A stretch of 64,000 bases of DNA from contig JBAXGO010000001.1 of assembly GCA_037139335.1 (NCBI GenBank), positions 4,503 to 68,502 of the forward strand, in the 5' to 3' direction. The position numbers were made by a program, and so were the translations under genes. The notes below the pieces were generated by a model. The model was given only the letters and a program-made list of their open reading frames with translations, was not told the DNA's origin and searched no databases. Below, one piece after another: positions 1,106 to 50,793 of this stretch. Within the stretch, counting starts at the first letter, position 1. Each line of letters opens with the position of its first letter. Source of the DNA: a bacterium. GTDB lineage: Bacteria > Patescibacteriota > Dojkabacteria > JAOAGR01 > JBAXGO01.

Positions 1106-1143
1106 AGTATGACAGAAAAACATGCATATGATATTATTTTCGC

Positions 1144-1539
1144 ATGAAAAGTAATTTAAACAAAAAAATAAGTAATTTATTAGTATCTGCTGTTGTAATA
1201 TTCTTCACAGCAGCAGATATTGTTCAGGCTAAATGCGGTATTGTCGCAGATCCTTTGGACCCAAATTGTACAGGTACTCCATCACTTGGCGATTTGGTTG
1301 GAGGATTTATTCCGTTTATTCCTATCGCAGTTGGTGTATTATTATTTGGAATGATAACCGTTGGAGCAGTTCAGATTACTATTGCTGGTCCAAATGATGA
1401 AGCTAAGAAAAAAGGAATTCAAACTATTCAAAATGCCATTGTTGGTGCTGTAATATTGTTTGTTTCAGTAGGCATAGTTTCATTAATTGAAGCTATTTTT
1501 GGTGTCAAACTTTTATATGGAGTAAATATTGGAAAATGA
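1144..1539 (+). CDS. Small secreted two-TM protein, TrbC/VirB2-like (T4SS pilin-like), member A1 of the paralog array
   Basis: Signal peptide, then a Cys pair (KCG..DPNCTG), then TM1, a charged loop (NDEAKKKGIQTIQNAI) and TM2. This is the topology typical of VirB2/TrbC pilins. Confidence 0.55.
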   Translation: MKSNLNKKISNLLVSAVVIFFTAADIVQAKCGIVADPLDPNCTGTPSLGDLVGGFIPFIPIAVGVLLFGMITVGAVQITIAGPNDEAKKKGIQTIQNAIVGAVILFVSVGIVSLIEAIFGVKLLYGVNIGK

Positions 1540-1937
1540 TTAAAAAAAATATACAAAAATTTAGTTTAATGTTTTTTTCTTTATTCCTTCTATCATCTAA
1601 TGTTTTTGCCGATTCGGATTGTGTGAAAAATAACCAAGTCCCTTCGCTTTGGGATCCGAATTGTACTGGCAAAACACCATCTATTGGCGATATTATCGCA
1701 GGAATTGTCCCAATAATTCCTACCTTAGTAGGTGCTTTACTTTTTGGTGTACTAATTTGGGGTGGAATTCAGATTTTTAGTGCGAATGCCAATGAAGAGG
1801 CCAAGAAAAAAGGCATCAAAACTATACAAAATGCTATTACAGGAATTGTATTACTCTTTTTATCAATTGCAATTATTACAATTATTGAATCAATACTAGG
1901 TCAAAAAATATTATTTGGTGTCTTTGTAAATAAATAA
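1536..1937 (+). CDS. TrbC/VirB2-like pilin-like protein, paralog A2
   Basis: Close paralog of A1 with the same signal-Cys-TM-loop-TM layout (DPNCTG, EEAKKKGIKTIQNAI). Its start overlaps the A1 stop by 4 nt. Confidence 0.55.
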   Translation: MIKKNIQKFSLMFFSLFLLSSNVFADSDCVKNNQVPSLWDPNCTGKTPSIGDIIAGIVPIIPTLVGALLFGVLIWGGIQIFSANANEEAKKKGIKTIQNAITGIVLLFLSIAIITIIESILGQKILFGVFVNK

Positions 1938-1943
1938 AGATTT

Positions 1944-2720
1944 ATGAAAGTTTATAAAAATATAATCAAATTAAGTATATTTTTAATATTACTCTTTTCT
2001 TCATTTAATTTCGCATTTGCTGCTCCAGTGCCAACTACTACTACAGTTACTCCTATGCAATATGCGAAAACAACTCCATGTCCTAGAGTTGGTACTACAA
2101 ATAGTTCTGGAAGTGTTGTTACATACGATGAATACGAAAAATGTCTTGAAATTGAAAGTGGTGCAAATAAAATAAATGCGAGTGGTTTTTTTCCCAATTT
2201 TAATTTTAACGATATTATAGGTGTTGTAACTACAATATTATTAGCTTTACTAGTAATAATTTTAACATTCAAAATAGTGCTTGCCGCTTTTAAATGGGCA
2301 AATAATGATGGTCAAGATAAGAATAAGAAAGATGCTATTAAAAGTATTAGTAATGGAATTGTTGGTTTGATAATATCTTTTTCAGCTTATTTCGTTATAA
2401 TTATTATAAGAGGCTTTTTCAATATCGACACTCAGTTGATACAGTGTAGTAACCTGTATTTTAAAAATGCTACGTCTTATGAAAATAATTCTAGTGCTGC
2501 ATCGATAACGACATCAGAGTCAGAATTCAAAAAATGCATAGATTTAGCTGGTAAAACTAATGTATTATCAGATAGCACAAAATATTCTGGTTTTATATCA
2601 AATATTCAAAAAAATTGTTCACCAAAATATTATGAATATTTATCTTCTACAAAGGAAATAAAGGTTTATGATAATCAGAAACTTAATCAATGTTTTGCTG
2701 ATGAATTGAAAAAATTATGA
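1944..2720 (+). CDS. Pilin-like two-TM protein with a ~100-aa Cys-containing C-terminal extension, paralog B1
   Basis: Signal peptide and a Thr-rich N-terminal segment (PVPTTTTVTP). A TM-loop-TM core carries FKWANNDGQDKNKKDAIKSISNGIVG. The C-terminal domain has 4 conserved Cys and ends in QCFADELKKL. Confidence 0.5.
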   Translation: MKVYKNIIKLSIFLILLFSSFNFAFAAPVPTTTTVTPMQYAKTTPCPRVGTTNSSGSVVTYDEYEKCLEIESGANKINASGFFPNFNFNDIIGVVTTILLALLVIILTFKIVLAAFKWANNDGQDKNKKDAIKSISNGIVGLIISFSAYFVIIIIRGFFNIDTQLIQCSNLYFKNATSYENNSSAASITTSESEFKKCIDLAGKTNVLSDSTKYSGFISNIQKNCSPKYYEYLSSTKEIKVYDNQKLNQCFADELKKL

Positions 2721-3418
2721 AAAAAATAAGTAAATTTATAATAATATTATTAACATCTTTTACATTAGTAAATATTGTTTCTGCGGCTACTCCTTGTCCT
2801 GCAGGAGATCAATCAGCAGATTGTGTCTCAAATGGCTTTGGTTTTGATGCAATAGATCTTAGAAGATTCTTTCCAAGTTTATCTTTTAATGATGTAATTT
2901 CTAGTACGGCAACGATTATTTTAATAGGATTGGTGATATTATTTGGTTTTAGAATAATTCTTGCAGGTTTCAAATGGGTTAATAATGACGGTCAGGATAA
3001 AAGTAAAAAAGATGCATTGAAAGGAATTATTAATGGAGTTGTTGGTATTGCGATTACATTTTCAGCATATTTTATAGTTTTATTCGTAAGGTCTTTGACA
3101 GCTGGTAATGATCAGCTTGTAAATTGTGCTAATCTTTATTATCGTGATACCAATTCATACATTACTAATTATAATGCTGGGGTGGCAGATACTTTTGGAA
3201 ATGCATCAGAAGAATTTACAAGGTGTATGAAGTTAGCTGGCTGGGCAGATACACTATCTGCTAGTGGAAAATTTAGTACTTTTACCACGAATCTAGATAA
3301 TAATTGCAAACAATATCTTACTTCGTCTCCAAACTCGAGTGGAATTGTGAAAGGGATTGAGATTAAAGATAAAAATAATTTACAACAATGTTTTGTTAAT
3401 GAACTAAAGAAATTATGA
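2717..3418 (+). CDS. Pilin-like two-TM protein with a Cys-containing C-terminal extension, paralog B2
   Basis: Paralog of B1 with core loop FKWVNNDGQDKSKKDALKGIINGVVG, conserved Cys in the C-domain and the ending QCFVNELKKL. It overlaps the B1 stop by 4 nt. Confidence 0.5.
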   Translation: MKKISKFIIILLTSFTLVNIVSAATPCPAGDQSADCVSNGFGFDAIDLRRFFPSLSFNDVISSTATIILIGLVILFGFRIILAGFKWVNNDGQDKSKKDALKGIINGVVGIAITFSAYFIVLFVRSLTAGNDQLVNCANLYYRDTNSYITNYNAGVADTFGNASEEFTRCMKLAGWADTLSASGKFSTFTTNLDNNCKQYLTSSPNSSGIVKGIEIKDKNNLQQCFVNELKKL

Positions 3419-4104
3419 AAATAAAATCAATAAAATATATTTCCATTGTATCGTTAGGTTTGCTCGGGGCTTCTAGTATTTCAAATGCAGAAACGACTAC
3501 TTGCAAAGATAGTTTTGCTCCGAAGTTTATATGTGAAAAATTCGCAGATATTACTACAAATTTCACATTTGGTTCAGTGCTTGATATGTTTTTTTCTATA
3601 GCTATTGCGGCACTTGTTGTTTTTATCTTATTTCAAATTGTGAAGGCAATCTTCAAATGGGTCTCTAAATCTGGTGATGAAAAAGAACGATCAGGGGCAA
3701 TTAAATCAATCTCAAATGCAGTTGCCGCAGGTATTGCTTTATTAGTTCTATTATTCGTAGTCCCATTATTTACTGATTTATTAAATATTGGTGGTAAACC
3801 AAATCCAGCGTATGTCTGTTATTCGGCTACAAGTTCTACTATGACACAGGCTAATATAGATCAGGAGACAGGTGCCTTGAATTCTGGTGTTAGTGCTTCT
3901 GAATTATCTGGAGGCATCGCATATGAAGGCAAAGCAAAAGGCGGAACTAAGAATAATAAAACAGCAGATTTTATAACTTTAACTGCGGATAATAAAGACA
4001 CAGTGGATTTTTTGAGCACAAAAATGTATTGCAAGGACAAAGATACTGGTGATGAGTATAAAGATGGATATGTTGTTTTGAAGAGAGTTGGGATCAAAAA
4101 GTAG
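3415..4104 (+). CDS. Pilin-like two-TM protein with a C-terminal extension, paralog C1
   Basis: Signal peptide and a Cys pair (TTCKD..FICEKF). The TM-loop-TM core carries FKWVSKSGDEKERSGAIKSISNAVAAG, followed by a ~100-aa C-terminal domain with 2 Cys. Confidence 0.5.
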   Translation: MKIKSIKYISIVSLGLLGASSISNAETTTCKDSFAPKFICEKFADITTNFTFGSVLDMFFSIAIAALVVFILFQIVKAIFKWVSKSGDEKERSGAIKSISNAVAAGIALLVLLFVVPLFTDLLNIGGKPNPAYVCYSATSSTMTQANIDQETGALNSGVSASELSGGIAYEGKAKGGTKNNKTADFITLTADNKDTVDFLSTKMYCKDKDTGDEYKDGYVVLKRVGIKK

Positions 4105-4175
4105 TCAAATAGTGTATGGTATTGTATAATTAATGCTTTAGTTTTAATATATCTTAATTAATTTTTTACATATAT

Positions 4176-4865
4176 ATGAATAAGAATAGTATAAAGTATT
4201 CTGTAGCCGCAGGAGCTGTTTTAGTAGCTAGTACATCTGTTGCTCATGCTGAAGATATTAGTTGTGATGGTTCATTGGTTCCTCAAGTCTGCAAAATATT
4301 CGCAGGAGCAGGAAGTTTCTCAGTAAGTGGTATATTACAGTCAGTTTTTGCTGTAGTTATTGCTATACTCGTCATTTTTATATTATTCCAAATTGTCAAA
4401 GCCGTATTTGATTGGGTTGGCAAATCAGGTGATGAAAAAGCAAGAAGTGCTGCAATCAAATCAATTACAAATGCAGTAGTTGCAGGTATCGTATTATTAG
4501 TTGCAATCTTGATTGTTGTTGTAGGATCAAGTCTTTTGAACATTGGTACACCAGCCGTTAATTATGTTTGTGTTGCTTCATCAACTCTTCCTAGCGGAGC
4601 CGCAAATCTAACGGCAAGAGGTACATTACTTTCTGGCAATTTGAAAGAACTTCCTGATGTACAAGCTCAAGAAGGAGCAGGCGTAAACAATAAATGGAAT
4701 GAAGGTTCTGCTTATGATAAATATATTAAAGGAACTACTGGGGCTGATGAGGACGTAGTCTCAGCATTAAAGAAAGTAAAATGTGTTCAGACATCTGGTG
4801 AAAGTAGTGGTAAAGAATATTCACCTAATTACTGGGTTGTTGCTAAAGTAGGTTTGAAAAAGTAA
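4176..4865 (+). CDS. Pilin-like two-TM protein with a C-terminal extension, paralog C2
   Basis: Paralog of C1 (ISCDG..QVCKIF; FDWVGKSGDEKARSAAIKSITNAVVAG). The array ends in an intrinsic terminator at 4879-4920. Confidence 0.5.
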   Translation: MNKNSIKYSVAAGAVLVASTSVAHAEDISCDGSLVPQVCKIFAGAGSFSVSGILQSVFAVVIAILVIFILFQIVKAVFDWVGKSGDEKARSAAIKSITNAVVAGIVLLVAILIVVVGSSLLNIGTPAVNYVCVASSTLPSGAANLTARGTLLSGNLKELPDVQAQEGAGVNNKWNEGSAYDKYIKGTTGADEDVVSALKKVKCVQTSGESSGKEYSPNYWVVAKVGLKK

Positions 4866-4878
4866 ATTAAGTCTTTTT

Positions 4879-4920
4879 AATAGGTCTTGTACTGAGAGGT
4901 ATGAGACCTATTTGTTTTTT
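4879..4920 (+). terminator. Rho-independent terminator closing the pilin-like array
   Basis: Stem taggtct/agaccta followed by tttgtttttt. Confidence 0.6.
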
Positions 4921-4969
4921 ATCGCAACTTATTTTATTATTCTAAAGATAACTAAACTGTCAAAATTAA

Positions 4970-6817
4970 ATGTTCAAACGTTTTAATGCCCAAAACGCTG
5001 ATGGAGAGCTGTATACTGCTTTGGATTTTTCTGGTTCAAATGCTTTTTTGTATTTTGCAAAAGATGGAGATATATCTATCTTGCGAAAATTTATTCAATT
5101 AAGCTGGGCTAGTACTTCTGAAGATGGTCTATCGCTAACACTAAATCTTAATTCGAGTGATCATACTATTTCTTCCACTCCTGATAATATTTATTTAGAT
5201 GAAAATGTTGCCAAAATTAGTGCCATGGAATCCTTTTATGGTATTGGATATTCGGATTATTCTAAATTATTTGTTATCACATATACACAGCTTTTGAATC
5301 TTGAACTAGGACGAATTCCTTTTCAACAATATTTAAATAGGTATGTCTTTCATAAACCAGATTCCAAATCTTATTATTCACCAGTTGAAGATATTTTTTA
5401 TGATATTGAGCAAGCCAGAAAATATAGTGGTGATAATTCAGCATCAACATTAAAAAAAGAAAAAAATGATATTTCTGAAAAATCTGAAATTTTAAGAAAA
5501 AAAATTAAAGATTTAGAAAATATAAATTTGGATAATGATATAGATGTAAATATTGATGAAAAAATAAATAATCTTGAAAAAAAATTAGGAGATCAAAAAA
5601 AACAAGATGAGTATGTTGGCCGTAAAGAAGTTTTGGTAGAAGAATTAAAAAGTATTAATGAAAAAATAAAACAATACGAGGTAGCTCTTAACAAAGTTTC
5701 AAAAGTTGATATTGATATGGTGAAATACAATAACTTTATGAGGTTAAATGTTCAGAGAGTAGAGAATGACTTATCTATGTTTCTATATCGTATTCGAGAA
5801 AGAGAAAAAGTCCTTTCAGATTTAGCTAATATCCATGTACAGTATCAAGCCTCTGATTCAAAACATTTGGCATATCTTCCGTTTATTATATTATTAATAA
5901 TATCTATAAGTGTTGGATTGACATTGAGCTTTATAGCAGATCCATTTGTTGGTGCTGTTTTAGGATCGATAATGTTAGTCTTAAGTTTGTTCTTTCTAAT
6001 ATTTTTCAAATCTTCTGGCAAAGTAAAGCCAAATGAATTAAGCCGAGATAAAGTATCGGCTATTGCAAATGAAATAGATGCTTTGAAATCAGCCAAGCAA
6101 AGGTATCTTCAAAATATGGGCTTTCAAAACGAAGATGATTATTTTGCTACGAAAGCACTTGTTAGAGCTTTGTTATTTCAAAAGGAAAATGATTTAGCCA
6201 AAATTCATGAGAAATTTGAAGGTAAAGAACTTAGTGATTATAAATATTTATATTCAGAAAAAAATAAAAAAATAGTAGATTTGCAGATTGAGATTGATAA
6301 ATTTGGGCCTATAATTTCTCCCGAAGAATATATTAGGAAAAAACGAGAGCTAGATATGCTCAAATTAGAAAAATCAGCAACTATTACTAATTATTCAGTT
6401 GAAGATAATTCCAAACAAATTGAAGAGCTTAAAAGAGAACTTGATACACTTCTTACGTCAAACAATGGAAATCTAGTAAATAATCCACTCGATGTTTATT
6501 TACGAATATTGCGAGAATATTTCGAAGATGAAAATATTCAGGCAAATAATGAGTATGTTCTTGATAATAAACAAATTAATTCATATGAAGAAAAGGTCGA
6601 GATGTTAATTATTCAAAGATATGCATATTTGATGTCCAATTTTCCTGATTCAAATCTTCCTATTTATCTAGAAGATCCTTTTGCTGGTGTCGAAAATAAA
6701 AATATTATCAATAAAATAATTAATTTTTGTTCAAAAAATAAACAAGTTATTCTAATATCTGAACATGATAATTATAAAGATTTAGGATTGAAAGTTTTAA
6801 ATCTTTCTTCTAATTAA
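4970..6817 (+). CDS. SMC/SbcC-like coiled-coil membrane protein with degenerate ATPase head motifs
   Basis: N-terminal domain with a Walker-A-like but non-canonical FSGSNAF. Long coiled coils (K/E/N-rich heptads) are interrupted by two TM helices (LAYLPFIILLIISISVGL..., AVLGSIMLVLSLFFLIFF). The C-terminal lobe has a Walker-B-like IYLEDPFAGVE and an H-loop-like QVILISEHDN. Confidence 0.45.
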   Translation: MFKRFNAQNADGELYTALDFSGSNAFLYFAKDGDISILRKFIQLSWASTSEDGLSLTLNLNSSDHTISSTPDNIYLDENVAKISAMESFYGIGYSDYSKLFVITYTQLLNLELGRIPFQQYLNRYVFHKPDSKSYYSPVEDIFYDIEQARKYSGDNSASTLKKEKNDISEKSEILRKKIKDLENINLDNDIDVNIDEKINNLEKKLGDQKKQDEYVGRKEVLVEELKSINEKIKQYEVALNKVSKVDIDMVKYNNFMRLNVQRVENDLSMFLYRIREREKVLSDLANIHVQYQASDSKHLAYLPFIILLIISISVGLTLSFIADPFVGAVLGSIMLVLSLFFLIFFKSSGKVKPNELSRDKVSAIANEIDALKSAKQRYLQNMGFQNEDDYFATKALVRALLFQKENDLAKIHEKFEGKELSDYKYLYSEKNKKIVDLQIEIDKFGPIISPEEYIRKKRELDMLKLEKSATITNYSVEDNSKQIEELKRELDTLLTSNNGNLVNNPLDVYLRILREYFEDENIQANNEYVLDNKQINSYEEKVEMLIIQRYAYLMSNFPDSNLPIYLEDPFAGVENKNIINKIINFCSKNKQVILISEHDNYKDLGLKVLNLSSN

Positions 6818-7677
6818 AGATTCTTCAAAACAATTTGAGTCTTTGGGGTTGTTTTTCCTTTCTTAATCTTTGTATACTTGATGGTGCTGGAAAGGTTCTT
6901 GTGGCCAACTATTTGTGATAGTTTCAAAATATTTTCACCGTTTTTAATATGGTGATATATAAAAGTATTTCGAAGATCGTTGACTGTTGCATTCGTTATC
7001 TTGGCTTTTTTCATTGCTCGGCTGATATATGTGCGAGCGTTTCTTATGATAATTGGTTTCCCTGCTTTAGTGACAAAAACATAACTGTTCTTCTGTGTAT
7101 TTGGTCTGACATCAAAATACATTGAGATTGCATCAGTTGCTGCTGAATTTAATGGAACTGTACGAGATGGGGTGCTTTCATTTTTTTCGATTCTTACTGC
7201 ATAAGGTTTCGTTTTAGATTTATAGCATATATCGCTAACTTTTAGCCTACATAATTCTCCAATTCTAATGCCAGTTTGTAAAAGAAGTTCTATCATTGCA
7301 TAAGTTCTAATATCTTTCAAACAAGAATTCCTAAGCTTAGTATATTCTTCTTTTGTTAAATATCTAGGAGCTTTTTCTTTAATTTTTGGATGATGTATGT
7401 TTTCTGAAGGATCTTTTTTAATATAATTTTGCTCCTTCATATGTTTGAAGAATGACCGTATACTGTTTATTTTTCTTGAAATACTTTTTAAATCGTAGTT
7501 TGCTTTTTTTAAAATTGCAATGTATTTTTTTATTCCATCTTCATCTACATCTTTCAATTTAAGTACTTGTAGCGTGGTGAATAATTGTTCAATGTCTTTT
7601 ACATACGCTTGTACAGTATATGCGGATTTTCCGTTCTCTTCTAGAAAGTTTTTATATTTGTTTATATAAGTCTTCAC
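6814..7677 (-). CDS. xerD: Tyrosine site-specific recombinase, XerC/XerD-like (phage integrase family)
   Basis: N-terminal SAM-like domain (AYTVQAYVKDIEQLF). The C-terminal catalytic domain has the R...H..R...Y residues (LRNTF, VGHKNLSSTIKYTKI). Its stop overlaps the stop of the convergent upstream gene. Confidence 0.75.
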   Translation of the reverse strand: MKTYINKYKNFLEENGKSAYTVQAYVKDIEQLFTTLQVLKLKDVDEDGIKKYIAILKKANYDLKSISRKINSIRSFFKHMKEQNYIKKDPSENIHHPKIKEKAPRYLTKEEYTKLRNSCLKDIRTYAMIELLLQTGIRIGELCRLKVSDICYKSKTKPYAVRIEKNESTPSRTVPLNSAATDAISMYFDVRPNTQKNSYVFVTKAGKPIIIRNARTYISRAMKKAKITNATVNDLRNTFIYHHIKNGENILKLSQIVGHKNLSSTIKYTKIKKGKTTPKTQIVLKNL

Positions 7678-7739
7678 TTTATGTTATTCTATGATACTAA
7701 TTTATGTAGTAAGTGATTCTATCACATAATGTATAGGAT

Positions 7740-8159
7740 ATGAACAAAAATCATAAGGATTATACACAATTTATCAAATCTTCAAAAGGGTTGAAATCAA
7801 TTCTTATGTTTATAGTCTTCCTAATTTTGTTTAGTGGACTAGCTGTATTTCTAGTTGTTCAATATAATCAAACAGTATCAAAAAGCAATCAACTTCAAAT
7901 ATTAGAAAATGAACTAAAAGCTGAAAAACAGAGAAATGACGAGCTAAAATTACAGAAAGAAGACGTTAAATCTGATACATATATTGAAAAAGAAGCAAGA
8001 AATAAACTAGGATATTCATATCCAAATGAAAATTTATATATACTAAAAAAAATTGTCGATAGTTCTGTTTCACCAATTGAAAGTAATCCTGTATTATCAT
8101 TAGCTCAGGAAAATAAATCTCCAATTCAGAAATGGATGGATCTAATATTTGGACAATAG
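7740..8159 (+). CDS. ftsB: Septum formation initiator (FtsB/DivIC family)
   Basis: N-terminal TM, a coiled coil and the conserved YIEKEARNKLGYSYPNE motif. Confidence 0.7.
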   Translation: MNKNHKDYTQFIKSSKGLKSILMFIVFLILFSGLAVFLVVQYNQTVSKSNQLQILENELKAEKQRNDELKLQKEDVKSDTYIEKEARNKLGYSYPNENLYILKKIVDSSVSPIESNPVLSLAQENKSPIQKWMDLIFGQ

Positions 8160-8195
8160 AGCATAATTTGGTATAATCCCGAGTGCATGTAAATA

Positions 8196-8270
8196 CGCGG
8201 GGTAGAGCAGTGGCAGCTCGTCAGGCTCATAACCTGAAGGTCGTTGGTTCGAATCCAACCCCCGCAACCA
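8196..8270 (+). tRNA. Initiator tRNA-fMet (CAU)
   Basis: Cloverleaf with anticodon loop ctCATaa. The 5' CGCGGGG and 3' CCCCGCAACCA give a C1-A72 mismatch. The sequence is near-identical in pattern to bacterial initiator tRNA, and CCA is encoded. Confidence 0.85.
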
Positions 8271-8413
8271 TTATTCCTCAGAATCAATTTTCAATAAAAT
8301 TACTTATTCAATTCGTTTATTAATATTGGAACTGCCAATTATAAAAATATTCAGTATCTAATCTTTTATAACTTAAAAAATTCTCGATAAATTGTAGATA
8401 GACCATTATTTTT

Positions 8414-8423
8414 ATGTTAAAAT
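8414..8423 (+). promoter_or_regulatory. Extended -10 element (TGtTAAAAT) upstream of the elongator tRNA-Met
   Basis: TGnTAAAAT lies about 10 nt before the tRNA 5' end. Confidence 0.45.
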
Positions 8424-8432
8424 ACCCCTGCT

Positions 8433-8505
8433 GGCGACGTAGCTCAGGGGTTAGAGCATTGGACTCATAAGCCAAGGGTCGGTGGTTCAAATCCACCCGT
8501 CGTCA
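8433..8505 (+). tRNA. Elongator tRNA-Met (CAU)
   Basis: GGCGACGTAGCTCAG...ACTCATAA...GGTTCAAATCC...CGTCGTCA closely resembles elongator tRNA-Met. CCA is not encoded. Confidence 0.8.
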
Positions 8506-8598
8506 CTTTAGAAAACTTTAACCTAGCTGTCTTCGTACTTTATAAGCTAATATTGTAGAATTCTTGATGGCTCTTTTTACTTTAACATTGAAATTATT

Positions 8599-10527
8599 AT
8601 GGCGAAAAAACTCGATATAAAAAACGTCTTGAATAAGGATGCAAAAAAAAACAGTAATTCTGTAGGTAATAATCCCACAAAACCAATAAAGAGATCCAAA
8701 TCTGGTCTTCCTCTTAATCTTAAAAATATGAGGAATCCCAAAAAATGGTATAAGAATCCTACTTTTTGGATTTTGATAGCTATTGGCTTTTCAATAATTA
8801 TTTTCAAAACAGCTGTGGTTGAACCTCCTACAAAAACTGTAGATTATGGAGCATTTATTGCTGCTGTTAAAGATAAAAAATATACTAAAGTAACTGTTTT
8901 TGATTACAGTGCTGTCGGTACAAAAGAAGATCAAAAATCTACTGATACCGTTGGTATTCCAAATAAATCATCTTTCTCACAAAGTTTAAAAGACGCAGGT
9001 ATACCTGTTACTGAATCTGGAATTACATATGATCAGCCTGCTGCTGTAGATATTTTCCCTTTACTTGTGAATGTTGGTTTAACAATTGGTGCAATCTTAC
9101 TTTTAATTTATTTCTTATCAAAGCAGGGAGGGGCAGGTGGTGGTTCTTCTGGTATATTTGGTATGGGCGAAAGTAAGGCTCGAATGATTTATGGAAAAAA
9201 ACAAGATATTAATTTCGATTCTGTTGCTGGTATAGATGAATCTAAGGATGAATTAAAAGAAGTTGTAGATTTTCTCAAGAATCCACAAAAGTACACGCGT
9301 ATGGGCGCTAGAATCCCAAAGGGGGTGCTTCTAGTAGGGCCTCCAGGAACAGGTAAGACATTATTAGCCAGAGCTGTTTCTGGTGAAGCAGGTGTTCCTT
9401 TCTTTTTCACATCAGGTGCTGAATTTGAAGAATTATTAGTTGGTGCAGGAGCCGCACGTGTTAGAGATCTTTTTGCTAAGGCCAAAAAAGCATCTCCATC
9501 AATTATTTTTATTGATGAAATTGATGCTATGGCTCGAAAAAGAGGCTCTGTAATACAATCTACAGCAACTGAACAAACCTTAAATCAGATACTTGTTGAA
9601 ATGGATGGATTTGATAATAACACTGGAATTCTTGTTTTAGCTGCTACAAATAGAGCTGATGTATTAGATCCAGCTATATTAAGACCAGGTAGATTTGATA
9701 GAAGAGTAACTTTAGATTTGCCTGACAAAGATGCTAGAAGACAGATACTTGATGTTCATGTGAAAAATAAACCATTATCAAAAGAAATTGATTTGGACAT
9801 TATTGCCAGAAGAACTGGAGGATTTTCAGGTGCTGATATAGAAAATATGCTCAATGAGTCCGCTATTATTACAGCCAAAGAAGGCCGATCTGAAATTACA
9901 AATAAGGATATAGAAGAAGCTGTCGCCAAAATAATGGTTGGTCCTGCCAAAAAAACAATGGCTACAGATAAAGATCGAAAAATTATTGCTTATCATGAAG
10001 CTGGTCATGCTATTGTTGGATATATGACAGGAGCTGATAGAGATGTACATAGAATTACTATTATTGCCAGAGGAAGTGCCGGTGGATATACAGAATACAT
10101 CCCTCATGATGATGATAAATTGATGTCAAAAGAGAAAATGACTTCTATGATTACTAGTGTTCTTGCTGGAAATGCAACAGAAAAATTAATTTTCAATGAC
10201 ACTACGACTGGAGCTTCAGATGATTTTGAAAAGGCAACATCTATTGCAAGACGAATGATTACTAAGTATGGAATGGGTGATATTGGTCCAATGGTTTTAT
10301 CGGATGGTGATGATACATATTCTATGACATATGGAATGAGAAAGGAGTTCTCAGAAAAAATTGCTGAAGAAGTCGACAGAAATGTTCAGAGACTTCTTAA
10401 TGAATGTTATGATAATGCTACTGAACTTCTCAAAAGATATAAGGTTAAACTTGAAAGAGTTGTGCAGGTTTTGTTTGAAAAAGAAACTATTGAAGGAGAA
10501 GAATTCAAGGCTATTATGGCTGAATAA
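8599..10527 (+). CDS. ftsH: ATP-dependent zinc metalloprotease FtsH
   Basis: TM segments, AAA+ Walker A (GPPGTGKT), the SRH region and HEAGHAIVG zinc motif. Confidence 0.95.
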   Translation: MAKKLDIKNVLNKDAKKNSNSVGNNPTKPIKRSKSGLPLNLKNMRNPKKWYKNPTFWILIAIGFSIIIFKTAVVEPPTKTVDYGAFIAAVKDKKYTKVTVFDYSAVGTKEDQKSTDTVGIPNKSSFSQSLKDAGIPVTESGITYDQPAAVDIFPLLVNVGLTIGAILLLIYFLSKQGGAGGGSSGIFGMGESKARMIYGKKQDINFDSVAGIDESKDELKEVVDFLKNPQKYTRMGARIPKGVLLVGPPGTGKTLLARAVSGEAGVPFFFTSGAEFEELLVGAGAARVRDLFAKAKKASPSIIFIDEIDAMARKRGSVIQSTATEQTLNQILVEMDGFDNNTGILVLAATNRADVLDPAILRPGRFDRRVTLDLPDKDARRQILDVHVKNKPLSKEIDLDIIARRTGGFSGADIENMLNESAIITAKEGRSEITNKDIEEAVAKIMVGPAKKTMATDKDRKIIAYHEAGHAIVGYMTGADRDVHRITIIARGSAGGYTEYIPHDDDKLMSKEKMTSMITSVLAGNATEKLIFNDTTTGASDDFEKATSIARRMITKYGMGDIGPMVLSDGDDTYSMTYGMRKEFSEKIAEEVDRNVQRLLNECYDNATELLKRYKVKLERVVQVLFEKETIEGEEFKAIMAE

Positions 10528-16889: not shown

Positions 16890-17028
16890 CACGATGCTTT
16901 ATCAAAACTAAAGCGTTTTTCAATAAGGTTTTCTGATTGAAATCCCAAATGATCATTAACAATCTACAAGTGGTAAGAGTGCAATTTGAAACATAATTGC
17001 AAAAATATTTTTTCGTCAATTTATACTA

Positions 17029-18603
<1,575 letters not shown>

Positions 18604-23561: not shown

Positions 23562-26680
<3,119 letters not shown>

Positions 26681-26815
26681 ACAAATTTACGAATTTTTGC
26701 AAAAATTAGCCTGTTCAGTTTCAAAGGAATATATACTGAATTATTAGTGACAAATTAATAATTTAGTGATATACTCCCAGAGTGTTCATACGACAGTTAG
26801 TAATGCTGACTGTTG

Positions 26816-35255: not shown

Positions 35256-35791
35256 CGGAAAAGATAAAATCTTTTTTTACATTTTTCTTGGTAAAAGTCC
35301 TCCCTGTAATCATTTTCATCCTATTATCATTTGGTCTTTTCTTTTTTATTACGAAAGAAGGGCAGAGAACTACCGAGATATTTGTAAAAATTCACATAGC
35401 AGGAGCTGTAGTTAGTCCAGGACAATATGAACTAAAAAATGGTTCAATTGTGGATGATGCTATACAAAAAGCAGGAGGTTTCGCCTCTAATTATGATGCT
35501 GTCTATGTAGAAGAGAAAATAAATCTAGCAAAGAAATTAAAGGACGAGGATAAAATATTTATTCCATTCAAGCAAGAAGATACTTCAGCTGCTGAAGGTG
35601 TTTCAATAACTGGAAAAATCAGTATTAATAAGGCTGATGCTAAACAATTAGATTTACTTCCTGGAATAGGTGAGGTTACTGCAAAAAAAATAATATCTGG
35701 TAGACCGTATGCCAAAGTTACTGATTTAGTTGATAAAAAAATAATCAGCCAGTCTGTATATGATAAAATCAAATCCCAAATTGATTTATGA
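35252..35791 (+). CDS. comEA: Competence protein ComEA (SLBB plus helix-hairpin-helix DNA-binding)
   Basis: N-terminal TM, an SLBB-like segment and the HhH motif LDLLPGIGEVTAKKII. Confidence 0.75.
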   Translation: MTEKIKSFFTFFLVKVLPVIIFILLSFGLFFFITKEGQRTTEIFVKIHIAGAVVSPGQYELKNGSIVDDAIQKAGGFASNYDAVYVEEKINLAKKLKDEDKIFIPFKQEDTSAAEGVSITGKISINKADAKQLDLLPGIGEVTAKKIISGRPYAKVTDLVDKKIISQSVYDKIKSQIDL

Positions 35792-37163
35792 ATATGTTAA
35801 AAATAGAGTTGATTTGATTTCATTATCTATTGGTGTCTTTCTTGTTGGATATTATTTGGGGGTTGGAATTAAGGGGGATTTTTTTCTTTTTTTCTTTCTT
35901 ATTCTTTGTTTTATTGTTTTAATAATATATAAAAAAGTAGAATTTGTTATACTTTTTATTTTTATATTTGGTATATTTTATTCGTTTCAACTCTTTTCTT
36001 TTCTTTCAACTAGTAATGTGAATGTTGATTCCTCAGTAGATTATGTTGGTTCATATAAAATTATTAGTATTAAAAGATTATTATGGTATAGTGAGAAAGT
36101 TGTCATGAATAACAGCTATTTCTTTCCTACTAGCGGAAGTCGAATTAAGTGCACAAGTGTTGAAAATTTCGAATTTGTAACAGATCCGGAATTAATTAAC
36201 CAAGGAATTAGAAGAAGTGCTACTTGCATTAAGGCCCAATACTATTCGGATAATTCTACATTTGTAAATATTAGGAATAGATTGTCTCAGAATTTTGATA
36301 GTTTCAATTATGATACTTCAAATGTTTTGAAAGGTATTACTTTAGGCATTAAGCCACCGCAAGAACTGAATGAGGCTTTTCGCAATGCAGGTATTTCGCA
36401 TATTCTAGTTATATCGGGATTTAATATAACTCTAATTCTTTTAATCATAACTCAGTTAATAAAAAAATTACCAACATTTTATAAAATATATTCATCAATT
36501 TTTTTTGTTGTTATATTTGTCCTTATTGTTGGACCTACCGCTCCTGTTTTACGTGCTGCTGTAATGGGCTTTATAGCATATTTAGCAACATTTCAATTCA
36601 AAAACTTATCATATGTACGAATATTATTAATTTCGGTAATAATCATGTTATTTCTAGATAACTACATTCTTTTTAACGTTAGTTTTCATCTGTCGTTTTT
36701 AGCAACTTTAGGCATTATTCTCTTTGGAAATATTACTAGAGATCTTTTCAAAATATTGCCAGATATTATTGGAGTACCATTTTCACAATCACTTTCTGCT
36801 GGAGTCTTTACTATACCGTATACTATAAATGTGTTTAGCTCCTTTTCGCCTATGTTATTGTTTACAAACATTATGGTAATTCCCTATATATCGTTGCTTT
36901 CTATTCTTGCGTATTTATATATGATATTTCCTAATATATTGTTTCGCTTCCCACTTGAAATTATGTCAAATTTTATTATTCAATTAGTTTTGTTTATATC
37001 GTCATTTTCTCTATCGAATATGCCTGCTGGCATACAGATTAAAGAGCTGGTTCTTTTTATCCTATTTGTAATAATCTCCTTGGTGGTTGGGATTTATGTG
37101 GTCAGAAAACTTTTGCTATATACGAGGATTGCAAAAAAATGTAAATTTAAGTACTATTGCTAG
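35760..37163 (+). CDS. comEC: ComEC/Rec2-like DNA internalisation channel, short form (competence domain only)
   Basis: Polytopic membrane protein with the competence-domain motif GISHILVISGFNITLIL. It has no metallo-beta-lactamase domain. Confidence 0.7.
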   Translation: MIKSNPKLIYEYVKNRVDLISLSIGVFLVGYYLGVGIKGDFFLFFFLILCFIVLIIYKKVEFVILFIFIFGIFYSFQLFSFLSTSNVNVDSSVDYVGSYKIISIKRLLWYSEKVVMNNSYFFPTSGSRIKCTSVENFEFVTDPELINQGIRRSATCIKAQYYSDNSTFVNIRNRLSQNFDSFNYDTSNVLKGITLGIKPPQELNEAFRNAGISHILVISGFNITLILLIITQLIKKLPTFYKIYSSIFFVVIFVLIVGPTAPVLRAAVMGFIAYLATFQFKNLSYVRILLISVIIMLFLDNYILFNVSFHLSFLATLGIILFGNITRDLFKILPDIIGVPFSQSLSAGVFTIPYTINVFSSFSPMLLFTNIMVIPYISLLSILAYLYMIFPNILFRFPLEIMSNFIIQLVLFISSFSLSNMPAGIQIKELVLFILFVIISLVVGIYVVRKLLLYTRIAKKCKFKYYC

Positions 37164-47919: not shown

Positions 47920-49747
47920 GATCTTTACTACAATATTAACGCTTGTGCTACTTTTTGTTGTTGCTCTGTCTTCATTTAATATACAAATGATACAAGGTGC
48001 ACAATTAAGGAATGATTCTGTGTCAAAATTCAGAATGGAATATATTAAAGCTTCAAGAGGTCTAATATTTGATCGAAACGGCAAACCACTTGTTCAAAAT
48101 AAATCATCATTTACATTATATTTAGAACCCTTAGTTATATCAGATTATAACCAGTTAAAAGCATCTATAACATCTATTGAAACATCAGAAATCGAATATA
48201 TCGATAAAAAATATAATGAAGTTTTGGATATTCAAAAATTTAACAATGGTTTAGTAGGCAATGACAAAAAAAATGAAAAAATTATTCCAGATAGAATACT
48301 AATTGATAAAAATTTTAACAATCCTATCTTTATAACTCAATATTTATCTGATCCTTCAAGATACAAAGGATTAAGGCTTGAAGAAGAATCACAAAGAGTA
48401 TATCTGCAAAAGGAATTAACAGCTCATTTGATCGGTTATACTGGAGAAGTTGTTGATGAGATTAATCTTGGTTATAGACCAAATACTGAAATAGGAAAAG
48501 CTGGCGTTGAATTATCATATGACTCACTTCTTCGTGGAAATGATGGCAAAGTTTCCGTGGATACTGATACTCAAAAAAGAAATATTGAATCATCTCCAGT
48601 TAATGGTAAAAACTTATACTTATCTGTAGATATTGATATTCAAAAGAGCTTATATGATATTTTGAAATCAGGTATGGAAGAATATAAGGCGACAGGTGCT
48701 GCAGGACTTTTACAGGATGTTAATACAGGAGAAGTTTTGGCTTATATATCACTTCCTTCTTATGATGATAATTTATTTGTTGGTGGAATTGGTAATAATG
48801 ATTTTGATAAATTAAATAAAGATCCGAATTCTCCAATGCTGGATAGAATTATTGATGGCACGTATCCTCCAGGTTCAGACTTCAAATTGAATACGGCAAC
48901 AGCTTTGCTGGAAACTGGTTCTATAACCAAAGATACTATGTTTCCTACTGGTGGATTATTTAAATTTGGTGATGTTACATTTAGAGATTTTTCAAATATT
49001 AATCAAGGAACGCTCGATGTTGTAGGTGGTTTGTGTAGGTCAAGTAATATCTTTTTTATGAAATCCACTCTTCAAATGGATGACTATACCAAGGGACTGG
49101 CTATTAATAAAATTATTGAATATGGATCCCGATATGGCTTAGGTAAAAAAACTGGTATCGATATGCCTGAAGGTTATCCTGGATATATTTCATCTCCTTC
49201 AATTAAAAAAGAATTAACAGGTGAAGAATGGCTCACAGGAGATTTATTAAATGCTTCAATCGGACAAGGGTATACTTTATTATCACCAATACAAGTGCAG
49301 ACAATGGTTACTGCAATTGCAAATGGAGGTAATGTTCTGCAACCTAGAGTTGTAATGGCTACGAATGATAGTCTTGAGGATAGTACAAAGACAAAAACCT
49401 CGCCAATTATAAGAAATAGTATTAATGTTTCAAAAAACACTTTAGATATTATTAAAGAAGGTATGTATTGTGGTGTGCATACTGGAATTATTCAGGATAT
49501 GAATTCATCGTTTGTACAAGTAGCTGCTAAATCTGGAACGGCTGAATTTGGTGCTCCAGATCCTGCTACTGGAGCTTATCCTAATAGGCATGGGTGGGTA
49601 ACAGGTTATTTCCCATATGATAATCCCAAATATTCATTTACATTACTTTTAGAGAAAGGGGGAAGCAGTGGTAATACAGTTAAAGTCGCTAGAAAGTTTA
49701 TAGATTGGCTTTATAAAGATTATAAAATTAATGAGAAAATAAAATGA
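47873..49747 (+). CDS. mrdA: Penicillin-binding protein 2 (peptidoglycan D,D-transpeptidase)
   Basis: N-terminal TM, a dimerisation domain and transpeptidase motifs (SDFK, KSG). The start may instead be the ATG at 47909. Confidence 0.85.
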   Translation: MVVQYQYSHINLMKDKIFTTILTLVLLFVVALSSFNIQMIQGAQLRNDSVSKFRMEYIKASRGLIFDRNGKPLVQNKSSFTLYLEPLVISDYNQLKASITSIETSEIEYIDKKYNEVLDIQKFNNGLVGNDKKNEKIIPDRILIDKNFNNPIFITQYLSDPSRYKGLRLEEESQRVYLQKELTAHLIGYTGEVVDEINLGYRPNTEIGKAGVELSYDSLLRGNDGKVSVDTDTQKRNIESSPVNGKNLYLSVDIDIQKSLYDILKSGMEEYKATGAAGLLQDVNTGEVLAYISLPSYDDNLFVGGIGNNDFDKLNKDPNSPMLDRIIDGTYPPGSDFKLNTATALLETGSITKDTMFPTGGLFKFGDVTFRDFSNINQGTLDVVGGLCRSSNIFFMKSTLQMDDYTKGLAINKIIEYGSRYGLGKKTGIDMPEGYPGYISSPSIKKELTGEEWLTGDLLNASIGQGYTLLSPIQVQTMVTAIANGGNVLQPRVVMATNDSLEDSTKTKTSPIIRNSINVSKNTLDIIKEGMYCGVHTGIIQDMNSSFVQVAAKSGTAEFGAPDPATGAYPNRHGWVTGYFPYDNPKYSFTLLLEKGGSSGNTVKVARKFIDWLYKDYKINEKIK

Positions 49748-50793
49748 ATGATGAAGATTATATAAATCTTTATTTGCGTTCGTTTGATGGCATCGGTCCC
49801 AAAACTCTTAAAAAAGCACAAAATACTTGTACAGGTGAAAAATTGATAGAATATTTTCATCATACAGAGTCGTCTATTTCATTCAAAGATTATAAAAACT
49901 GGAAACAAAAATTTGTCGAAAATGTGGAAAAACGACATATTGGGATCTTAAATATTGATGATGAAAACTACCCTCAACTATTGAAAAATATTGCAAATCC
50001 TCCTGATTTTATCTTTTACATAGGTAATATCTCCTTGATTAATCAAAAATGTTTTGCCGTTGTTGGATCCAGAAGACCAACAGGGTATGGTGTTAATGCA
50101 ACTAAAGATATAACAAAAGGATTATCAGATTATGGATTTATAATTGTTTCGGGTATGGCACTAGGCATAGACAGTATTTCACATTATTCATCAATACAAA
50201 ATGGTACTATCGCAGTTCTTGGTTGTGGACTGAATTATATATATCCTTCAACAAATGGAATTCTATACAAAAAAATTATTGAAAATAATGGACTAATTAT
50301 TAGTGAACTCTTTCCTGAAATTCTTCCTCATCCAGCCTTGTTTGTGCAGAGAAGTAGGATTATTGCTGGTTTAAGTGAGGGATTGCTTGTAACAGAAGCT
50401 GCTCTGAAAAGCGGTAGTCTTTTGGCATGTAATTTTGCATTTGATGCGGGAAGGAATGTTTACGCTGTTCCAGGAGATATTACAAGAGAAACCTCGCGAG
50501 GCTGTAACATGCTTATTAATCGGAATATTGCCAAATTAGTGACAACAGCTACAGATATTATTGAAGATTATTCAAATGATTATATAAGTACAATTCAAAA
50601 AGCTAACATTAGTAATAATTATTCTGATTTGTCTCAAAAAATTATTAGTTTATTAAAAGAAGGTGTTTCAACGGTCGACTTACTATCGGATTCTATTGGA
50701 TGTGATATTCAAAGTATTTTTTCTGAACTAACAGATTTAGAAATAGCAGGCGTAATAGAGCGGGGGGGTAGTGAAATTTATTTAAAGTTATGA
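49744..50793 (+). CDS. dprA: DNA processing protein DprA
   Basis: Rossmann-like DprA core (VVGSRRPTGYG...GMALGIDSISH). Confidence 0.85.
   Translation: MNDEDYINLYLRSFDGIGPKTLKKAQNTCTGEKLIEYFHHTESSISFKDYKNWKQKFVENVEKRHIGILNIDDENYPQLLKNIANPPDFIFYIGNISLINQKCFAVVGSRRPTGYGVNATKDITKGLSDYGFIIVSGMALGIDSISHYSSIQNGTIAVLGCGLNYIYPSTNGILYKKIIENNGLIISELFPEILPHPALFVQRSRIIAGLSEGLLVTEAALKSGSLLACNFAFDAGRNVYAVPGDITRETSRGCNMLINRNIAKLVTTATDIIEDYSNDYISTIQKANISNNYSDLSQKIISLLKEGVSTVDLLSDSIGCDIQSIFSELTDLEIAGVIERGGSEIYLKL

Follow-up and report, generated by a model that had tools for sequence, protein, structure and literature searches.

A chromosomal segment of 64,000 nt (31% GC; hereafter the window) from contig JBAXGO010000001.1 of assembly GCA_037139335.1, a probably ultra-small member of the Dojkabacteria (Patescibacteriota), contains directly 3' of pnp an array of six tightly packed genes, A1-A2-B1-B2-C1-C2 (positions 1144-4865, + strand), whose products all have the type IV secretion system (T4SS) pilin family T4SS_pilin (PF18895) as their best Pfam match. 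Four of the six predicted proteins, the B and C pairs, additionally possess a C-terminal domain of about 100 aa with invariant cysteine residues, and these appended domains may constitute a variable contact surface of the cell. VirB2-like pilin arrays are already known from the Patescibacteria; what is new here is the occurrence of domain-bearing paralogs and, in a sister species, of a B cassette that differs between strains.

Domain architecture and predicted topology of the array proteins

The best match of all six proteins to T4SS_pilin supports the designation of the array core as VirB2-like, as judged from sequence. The paralogs share 17-47% identity with A1. A profile of the B family retrieved 602 proteins at E<=1e-3, and when such matches were rescanned 8 of 10 reached the PF18895 gathering cut-off of 26.6 bits, P0012, a member of the B family, scoring 26.8 bits and P0020 25.1 bits. 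None of the six proteins matched the canonical VirB2/TrbC family (PF04956) at E<=1, and in relatives this family gave only sub-threshold scores (18-22 bits versus a cut-off of 27.9). Hydropathy analysis indicates two transmembrane (TM) helices in each of the six. Leader scores were obtained for A1, B1 and B2 only; the AxA-type leaders of the remaining proteins, including C1 and C2, fall below the hydropathy threshold used and were read by eye. In B1 and B2 a short loop connects the TM helices, and its charge is net basic (5-6 Lys/Arg versus 3 Asp/Glu). The class III prepilin motif (G↓F/M-T-L-x-E) is absent from the array proteins, which have Sec-type AxA leaders and two TM helices instead. Given the signal peptide, the two TM helices, the basic loop and the confinement of even-numbered, invariant Cys residues to the predicted outside segments, the C-terminal domains should be located outside the cytoplasm.

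The original prediction, made from the DNA sequence alone, counted four Cys residues in the C-terminal extensions of B1 and B2 and two in those of C1 and C2, in agreement with the positions listed in Table 1. It was silent on a second feature, a Cys pair in the N-terminal mature segment of all six array proteins. The membrane core contains no Cys. Wherever a B-family sequence covers the relevant alignment columns, all four C-terminal Cys residues of the B domain are present without exception, and both C-terminal Cys residues of the C domain are invariant in nine C-family sequences. Since mean column identity within the B and C domains is only 35-36%, this pattern is not ascribable to chance. 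The Cys content of the B domain is 3.9%, compared with 0.73% in the long open reading frames (ORFs) of the window. The invariant residues are flanked by the motifs QL[VI]NC.NLY, [ST].EF..C and L.[QK]CF. The ending QCF(A/V)(D/N)ELKKL, which had been noted as common to B1 and B2, is present in both, and family-wide only L-x-[QK]-C-F of the B ending is conserved.

Only 13 residues follow TM2 in A1 and A2. The extra C-terminal domain of about 100 aa that had been proposed for the B and C pairs is found in all four proteins (101 to 109 aa; Table 1), and it does not arise from mis-called stops, as the ORFs are uninterrupted and the corresponding array of the sister species encodes proteins of 130/149/250/231/235/230 aa. 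The C proteins end in ~10 residues (e.g. VVAKVGLKK, VVLKRVGIKK) that resemble the tails of the A proteins (LLYGVNIGK, ILFGVFVNK), with which they are aligned by MAFFT (coordinates 1500-1539 and 1898-1937 for A1 and A2; 4071-4101 and 4832-4862 for C1 and C2). Given this resemblance to the short A tails, the C domain may have been inserted after TM2 and ahead of a terminal motif that is conserved.

The C-terminal domains of B1 and B2 are 39% identical (tblastn, E=3e-18). A common origin of the B and C domains was considered and rejected (hhalign probability 0.2%). AlphaFold2 (AF2) was run on full-length B1 and C2 with only 5-7 aligned sequences. In B1 residues 161-258 the confidence score pLDDT, taken over 10-residue blocks, ranges from 53 to 82, and the model of this domain is mostly helical with one beta-hairpin, the TM2 helix continuing beyond the membrane. 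The corresponding blocks in C2 (residues 131-229) score 55-84, and here the model is alpha/beta with both Cys residues on strands. With moderate AF2 confidence in both cases, the extensions are predicted to be folded rather than disordered. Fold searches with the full-length models returned only generic helical hairpins and Foldseek gave no significant match; the top non-significant hairpin matches include the Aeropyrum conjugation pilin 8dfu.

Occurrence of appended domains in PF18895

Profile searches of the PDB with the B and C domains detected no sequence relative, nor was any relative of either domain present in a plasmid collection or among the PHROGs phage families. A word-indexed search with the C-domain profile recovered one family member that was already known and nothing else. 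In an exhaustive HMMER scan of 1.84 billion representatives, the B-family profile found nine full-length B-family clusters only, each with the 2+4 Cys pattern; about nine members of the C family are known. Two sequences, P0019 and P0046, were candidates for tandem B domains and were rejected as spurious translations of tandem DNA repeats, their scores being inflated by the summing of many weak matches.

In the 132 single-core proteins that were retrieved the tail past the core has a median length of 17 aa, in a set that is biased because it includes B and C members and matches to a profile containing the B domain. Only about five proteins that belong to neither family have at least 60 extra residues. 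The add-ons encountered elsewhere in PF18895 comprise extensions of ~350 aa (P0056, P0117) and Cys-rich tails (P0115, with 15 Cys, P0022 and P0143), and several of the proteins bearing them pass the PF18895 cut-off; a further arrangement, represented by 19 proteins (e.g. P0029 and P0059), consists of 2-6 fused cores. Like the B and C proteins, P0022, P0056/P0117, P0115, P0143 and P0059 possess an extra segment past the core that is often rich in Cys (6-18 residues), but these segments (~350-aa extensions, Cys-knot-like tails and core fusions) are unrelated to the B and C domains. The original statement that canonical VirB2 pilins have no appended domains is correct as general knowledge, but it does not extend to PF18895, other members of which do carry C-terminal add-ons. 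For this reason the architecture is unusual rather than unique, and the B and C domains are rare and lineage-restricted cases of a recurrent theme. The unrelated add-ons and fused cores in relatives identify the PF18895 hairpin as a modular scaffold that takes N- and C-terminal additions and multi-core fusions, and this modularity matters for annotation.

The presence of 3-6 tandem T4SS_pilin cores within a single polypeptide, as seen in P0029 (552 aa), P0059 (619 aa) and P0130, was unexpected; P0059 contains a Pro/Thr linker and an 18-Cys domain besides its fused cores. Another member of the B family, P0015 (267 aa), has N- and C-terminal domains of the B type together with a cytoplasmic loop, KWVSKSGDEKERGAAIK, that is nearly identical to the loop of the C family, KWVSKSGDEKERSGAIK, which suggests past recombination between B and C paralogs.

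Divergence between species and the B cassette

The sister species retains the order pnp-A1-A2-B1-B2-C1-C2-D-xer-divIC-ftsH-polA with near-identical gene lengths (D being the gene next to the array), and at least C1-C2-D-xer is kept in a third species. The appended domains are retained in every related species sampled. Comparison of the window with the sister species gives an identity of 67-82% in the cores and of 35-51% in the C-terminal domains (Fisher p from 0.017 to 8e-8), so that the cores are indeed conserved while the ectodomains differ, as originally proposed. The companion claim, that the N-terminal segments are highly variable, holds for B1, C1 and A1 (42-53% identity between orthologs) but not for B2, C2 and A2, in which the corresponding value (67-76%) is near that of the core. 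The between-species ratio of nonsynonymous to synonymous substitution (dN/dS) is 0.26-0.42 in the C-terminal domains and 0.06-0.12 in the cores of A2 and C2, for which an estimate of dS was obtainable; these ratios are indicative only because dS is saturated at that distance.

Variation at strain level was analysed in two strains of the sister species, represented by contigs L001 and L005. Over a segment of ~1 kb (L001 9683-10720) the DNA identity between them drops to 36-81%, with indels. The divergent segment extends from the start of the B1 C-terminal domain to the B2 stop codon, thus including the B1 domain and all of B2, and its edges coincide with the junction between the core and C-terminal domain of B1 and with the B2/C1 gene junction. 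The flanking genes, C1 and C2 show 96-100% DNA identity, with dS of 0.01-0.03 in the flanking genes; the D proteins are 99% identical, with dS of 0.11 and two short, recombinant-looking dips to 86-90%. Within the segment, the B2 core has dN of 0.007 and dS of 0.45, values that point to strong purifying selection on this core, and the B C-terminal domains have dN of 0.35-0.38 and dS of 0.8-1.0. In a sliding window of 20 codons the nonsynonymous proportion (pN) is close to 0 over B2 codons 41-140 and rises to 0.3-0.55 in patches between the Cys motifs, remaining below the synonymous proportion (pS) in all windows.

Both B alleles are found in one metagenome, ERZ27272740, in which L005 is a 13-kb contig starting within B1 and L008 is a 1.6-kb contig spanning exactly B1-B2. 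Assemblies break at the B genes, as could happen if coexisting alleles formed a bubble in the assembly graph. Four samples share an identical copy of the common B allele. When metagenomes and GTDB were scanned with the B profile, only the known sister contig and one distant array, L007, were recovered, and no further B alleles. By tblastn, neither strand of the window contains further copies of either domain type, B or C, and the repeats in the window are confined to direct repeats derived from the paralogs and chance-level AT-rich inverted repeats. Diversity-generating retroelements, shufflons and gene conversion from silent cassettes were each considered and rejected for the window, as there are no silent copies and the alleles differ by indels and high dS.

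Patchy divergence over ~1 kb with high dS is the signature of old, deeply diverged alleles set into a background of 99-100% identity by homologous recombination, and not of hypermutation in situ. The identity of the common allele in four samples, the coexistence of the alleles and the lack in the window of silent copies and of repeats of shufflon or retroelement type all agree with this reading. Since the competence proteins ComEC and DprA are encoded in the window, natural transformation is a plausible route for allele exchange.

Proposed role, rival explanations and genomic context

In solved VirB2/TraA pili the loop of the hairpin lines the lumen and both termini face outwards, and sequences fused to the C terminus of F-pilin are displayed on the surface. 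The array proteins resemble the canonical VirB2/TrbC/TraA pilins (PF04956) in forming a predicted helical hairpin whose two termini lie on the side opposite the loop. In contrast to the B and C proteins (229-258 aa), canonical pilins have a mature length of ~70-80 aa, lack an extra domain and are in some cases cyclised. Building on this analogy, we lean towards a model in which the array encodes VirB2-like pilins with displayed domains that face outwards as a host contact face. Export by Sec and signal cleavage would leave a hairpin with its loop in the cytoplasm and both termini outside, following the VirB2/TraA topology, and because both termini are placed outside, their Cys pairs could form disulfides. 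If the hairpins were extracted and polymerised in the manner of VirB2/TraA, the termini would become the outer surface of the filament, and the appended domains would stud its exterior (or that of the cell, should no filament be made) and form the face presented to the host cell. Plain structural subunits would then be provided by A1 and A2, and domain-bearing subunits by the B and C proteins. Homologous recombination, plausibly via natural transformation, would exchange the B alleles, and selection favouring a diverse surface, for instance through host range or escape from phage or host defences, would maintain them. A more specific version, in which the B and C proteins are VirB2-type subunits with disulfide-braced receptor-binding domains on a T4SS-type filament of a monoderm, and in which B is a host-specificity cassette swapped by transformation, is offered tentatively and is rather unlikely to hold in full.

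A precedent for such arrays exists in related bacteria. In a recent survey (Quinonero-Coronel et al. 2025, PMC12102498), VirB2-like pilins are reported from 1,948 Patescibacteria assemblies that also have VirB4, being adjacent to virB4 in 1,135, and 441 Patescibacteria arrays are described that contain 2-11 pilin genes averaging 25% identity. A six-pilin array is reported to be essential in Southlakia epibionticum (Wang et al. 2023, PMC10633639; PMC12857230). VirB2-like arrays are widespread in the Patescibacteria and essential in the one member tested (PMC12102498, PMC10633639). The present array resembles them in comprising six divergent tandem paralogs, each built of a signal peptide and a two-TM hairpin with a short loop, and in its chromosomal location within a genome that looks to be of the candidate phyla radiation (CPR) type. 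It differs in that four of the six proteins carry Cys-braced C-terminal domains of ~100 aa, which are undescribed in the published text seen, in its position between pnp and xer/ftsH rather than beside virB4, and in the presence of one module, B, that is polymorphic between strains (of the sister species). By analogy, a conserved hydrophobic polymerisation core combined with a variable surface domain whose allelic diversity is maintained by recombination is also characteristic of type IV pilins and flagellins, and the variable domain of type IV pilins is disulfide-braced, as proposed for the B and C domains. There is no homology to either, however, and the array proteins have Sec-type AxA leaders and a hairpin core rather than a single helix.

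Several observations weigh against the displayed-pilin model. Only A1 and A2 exceed the PF18895 cut-off, B1, B2, C1 and C2 scoring just under it (20.8-25.2 bits). VirB4, VirB6 and VirB8 are encoded neither in the window nor within 10 kb on either side, a span reaching from about 10 kb 5' to about 70 kb 3' of the array, and a pilus has yet to be demonstrated for any VirB2-like protein of the Patescibacteria (PMC12857230). Polymerisation of a hairpin that bears a 100-aa domain is itself putative and raises a question for this model. The evidence at strain level comes from the sister species; the window's own species is represented by a single second sample (L013), which is 100% identical. The C1 and C2 domains are identical between L001 and L005. 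In no region or window does dN/dS exceed 1 (0.26-0.66 in the C-terminal domains), and positive selection is consequently not demonstrated. The original prediction of a diversifying signature is therefore borne out in part: the ectodomains evolve faster and the B alleles have been replaced, but dN/dS is below 1 throughout and the C1 and C2 domains do not differ between strains.

A rival explanation is that the proteins are not filament subunits at all but membrane proteins anchored by the hairpin, with the appended domains acting at the surface, in a T4SS-like channel or in a cell-wall complex. This explanation, which we regard as unlikely, draws on the lack of T4SS machinery beside the array and of a demonstrated pilus, and on a likeness to the Mycoplasma integrative and conjugative element (ICE) proteins Mbov_0395/Mbov_0396 (MMCAP2_0565/0566), in which a monoderm or wall-less organism encodes a small hairpin protein together with a longer hairpin protein that has a C-terminal extension. 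The hairpin of C1 and ~30 residues beyond it are covered by sub-threshold matches to MMCAP2_0566 (E 1.9e-6) and to Mbov_0396 (E 3.3e-6), and all six proteins weakly match the 80-aa model of the pilin-like Mbov_0395. These scores are nevertheless far under the NCBIfam cut-offs (27 versus 90 bits; 26 versus 40), the best being 26.4/40 for NF045849 (A2), 27.4/90 for NF045848 (C1) and 26.8/70 for NF045889 (C1); the array has no ICE context, its C-terminal domains are unrelated to those of Mycoplasma, and every protein scores best against the pilin family PF18895. The combination of short and long paralogs in one array suits the logic of major and minor pilin subunits equally well.

A separate objection concerns only the evolutionary part and is compatible with either the pilin or the membrane-anchor model. 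It holds that the divergence of the ectodomains reflects relaxed constraint on tails and that the B cassette is a neutral import from a diverged lineage with no adaptive role. The substitution pattern (dN/dS in the C-terminal domains never above 1, and pN below pS throughout), the sampling of just two B alleles and the identity of the C domains between strains are all in keeping with it, and we regard it as a live, if somewhat improbable, alternative. Against it, neither the Cys residues nor the motifs around them vary across the family, both B alleles keep intact reading frames and the scaffold, and the domains are predicted to be folded and are retained in every related species sampled. Furthermore, divergence is limited to a 1-kb segment whose edges fall at domain or gene junctions, and the alleles coexist in one sample. 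An artefactual origin of the extensions or of the variability (through an erroneous stop call, a frameshift or chimerism in a metagenome assembly) might be entertained because all data derive from metagenome assemblies and the L005 allele rests on a single contig, but it is extremely improbable: the ORFs are uninterrupted, orthologs in other assemblies share their length and Cys pattern, and the window sequence is reproduced at 100% in an independent Logan assembly. Contig names suggest that assembly was performed with k=141, and if so, exact overlaps of that length would join the divergent segment to its identical flank, which speaks against a chimera.

Under the displayed-pilin model, some of the array paralogs may be host-contact determinants, an idea that is testable. 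If this is true, strain variation in these paralogs could set the host range of obligate epibionts. PrgB-like adhesins were not detected in the Patescibacteria in the survey (PMC12102498); if the more specific version of the model is correct, pilins of the B and C type would supply the adhesin function that surveys failed to find, displayed along the shaft or at its tip.

The features of the window are listed in Table 1. Three of the junctions within the array are 4-nt overlaps of start and stop codons. The strong terminator-like element after C2 probably marks the end of the six-gene unit. The evidence for the promoter-like site 5' of A1 is weak, the counts of such sites being not above shuffled expectation.

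Table 1. Coordinates of the array and of other features in the window (PF18895 scores in bits)
Feature	Position	Strand	Remarks
Promoter-like site	1109-1137	+	ATGACA-17-TATTAT, TG-extended; just 5' of A1; weak evidence
A1, short T4SS_pilin paralog	1144-1539	+	131 aa; PF18895 29.4, above gathering cut-off
A2, short T4SS_pilin paralog	1536-1937	+	133 aa; PF18895 34.2; 47% identity to A1
B1 gene	1944-2720	+	258 aa; PF18895 20.8, below cut-off
B1 signal peptide	1944-2021	+	
B1 N-terminal outside segment	2022-2219	+	Thr-rich stretch; Cys46, Cys67
B1 two-TM core	2220-2414	+	
B1 C-terminal 4-Cys domain	2415-2717	+	101 aa; Cys168, Cys198, Cys225, Cys250
B2 gene	2717-3418	+	233 aa; start codon overlaps B1 stop; PF18895 23.0
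B2 signal peptide	2717-2785	+	
B2 N-terminal outside segment	2786-2902	+	Cys27, Cys36
B2 core	2903-3097	+	
B2 C-terminal 4-Cys domain	3098-3415	+	106 aa; Cys137, Cys170, Cys197, Cys225
C1 gene	3415-4104	+	229 aa; PF18895 25.2
C1 signal peptide	3415-3489	+	
C1 N-terminal outside segment	3490-3579	+	Cys30, Cys40
C1 core	3580-3777	+	
C1 C-terminal 2-Cys domain	3778-4101	+	108 aa; Cys135, Cys206
C2 gene	4176-4865	+	229 aa; PF18895 21.3
C2 signal peptide	4176-4250	+	
C2 N-terminal outside segment	4251-4337	+	Cys30, Cys39
C2 core	4338-4535	+	
C2 C-terminal 2-Cys domain	4536-4862	+	109 aa; Cys132, Cys203; predicted alpha/beta
Terminator-like element	4879-4922	+	15-pair-stem hairpin (4879-4912), then T-run; 14 nt past C2 stop
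D	4970-6817	+	615 aa
XerC/D-type tyrosine recombinase	6814-7677	-	
16S rRNA	17022-18603		
23S rRNA	23562-26684		match of 3123 nt versus 2925-nt model
ComEC	35760-37163		competence
DprA	49744-50793		competence

The neighbours of the array are housekeeping genes. On the same contig, outside the window and ending 9.3 kb upstream of A1, is a gene for a DUF8128 protein of 790 aa (L012 1-676), the last 224 aa of which give sub-threshold matches to TraG-D_C (E 6e-4), SXT_TraD (E 8e-4) and a VirD4-like family; this protein, the only lead to T4SS machinery in the surroundings, may be a coupling-protein-like ATPase of a T4SS near the array. Directly past the array terminator, gene D encodes a protein with long coiled-coil-like stretches and central hydrophobic segments that is conserved in place, at lengths of 612-613 and 602 aa, in two or more other species. 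It has no match at curated cut-off or significance in Pfam, NCBIfam or the PDB, and PHROGs returned nothing. In each of the three species examined the XerC/D-type gene adjoins D. Neither sites with inverted repeats nor invertible segments that would tie this recombinase to the pilin array were found, and it is probably the housekeeping Xer.

The 16S and 23S rRNA genes of the window are unlinked, lying 4.9 kb apart and separated by two tRNA genes and by protein genes, one of which lies on the minus strand and encodes a YkuD L,D-transpeptidase; the length of the 23S match relative to its model suggests an insertion. The distant array L007 contains seven short T4SS_pilin-like ORFs within ~5 kb (3829-9116), six of them in an unbroken run and the first with a Pro/Thr-rich C-terminal tail. 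This contig is labelled "uncultured Gammaproteobacteria" in GTDB, a label that looks doubtful in view of its CPR-like gene content.

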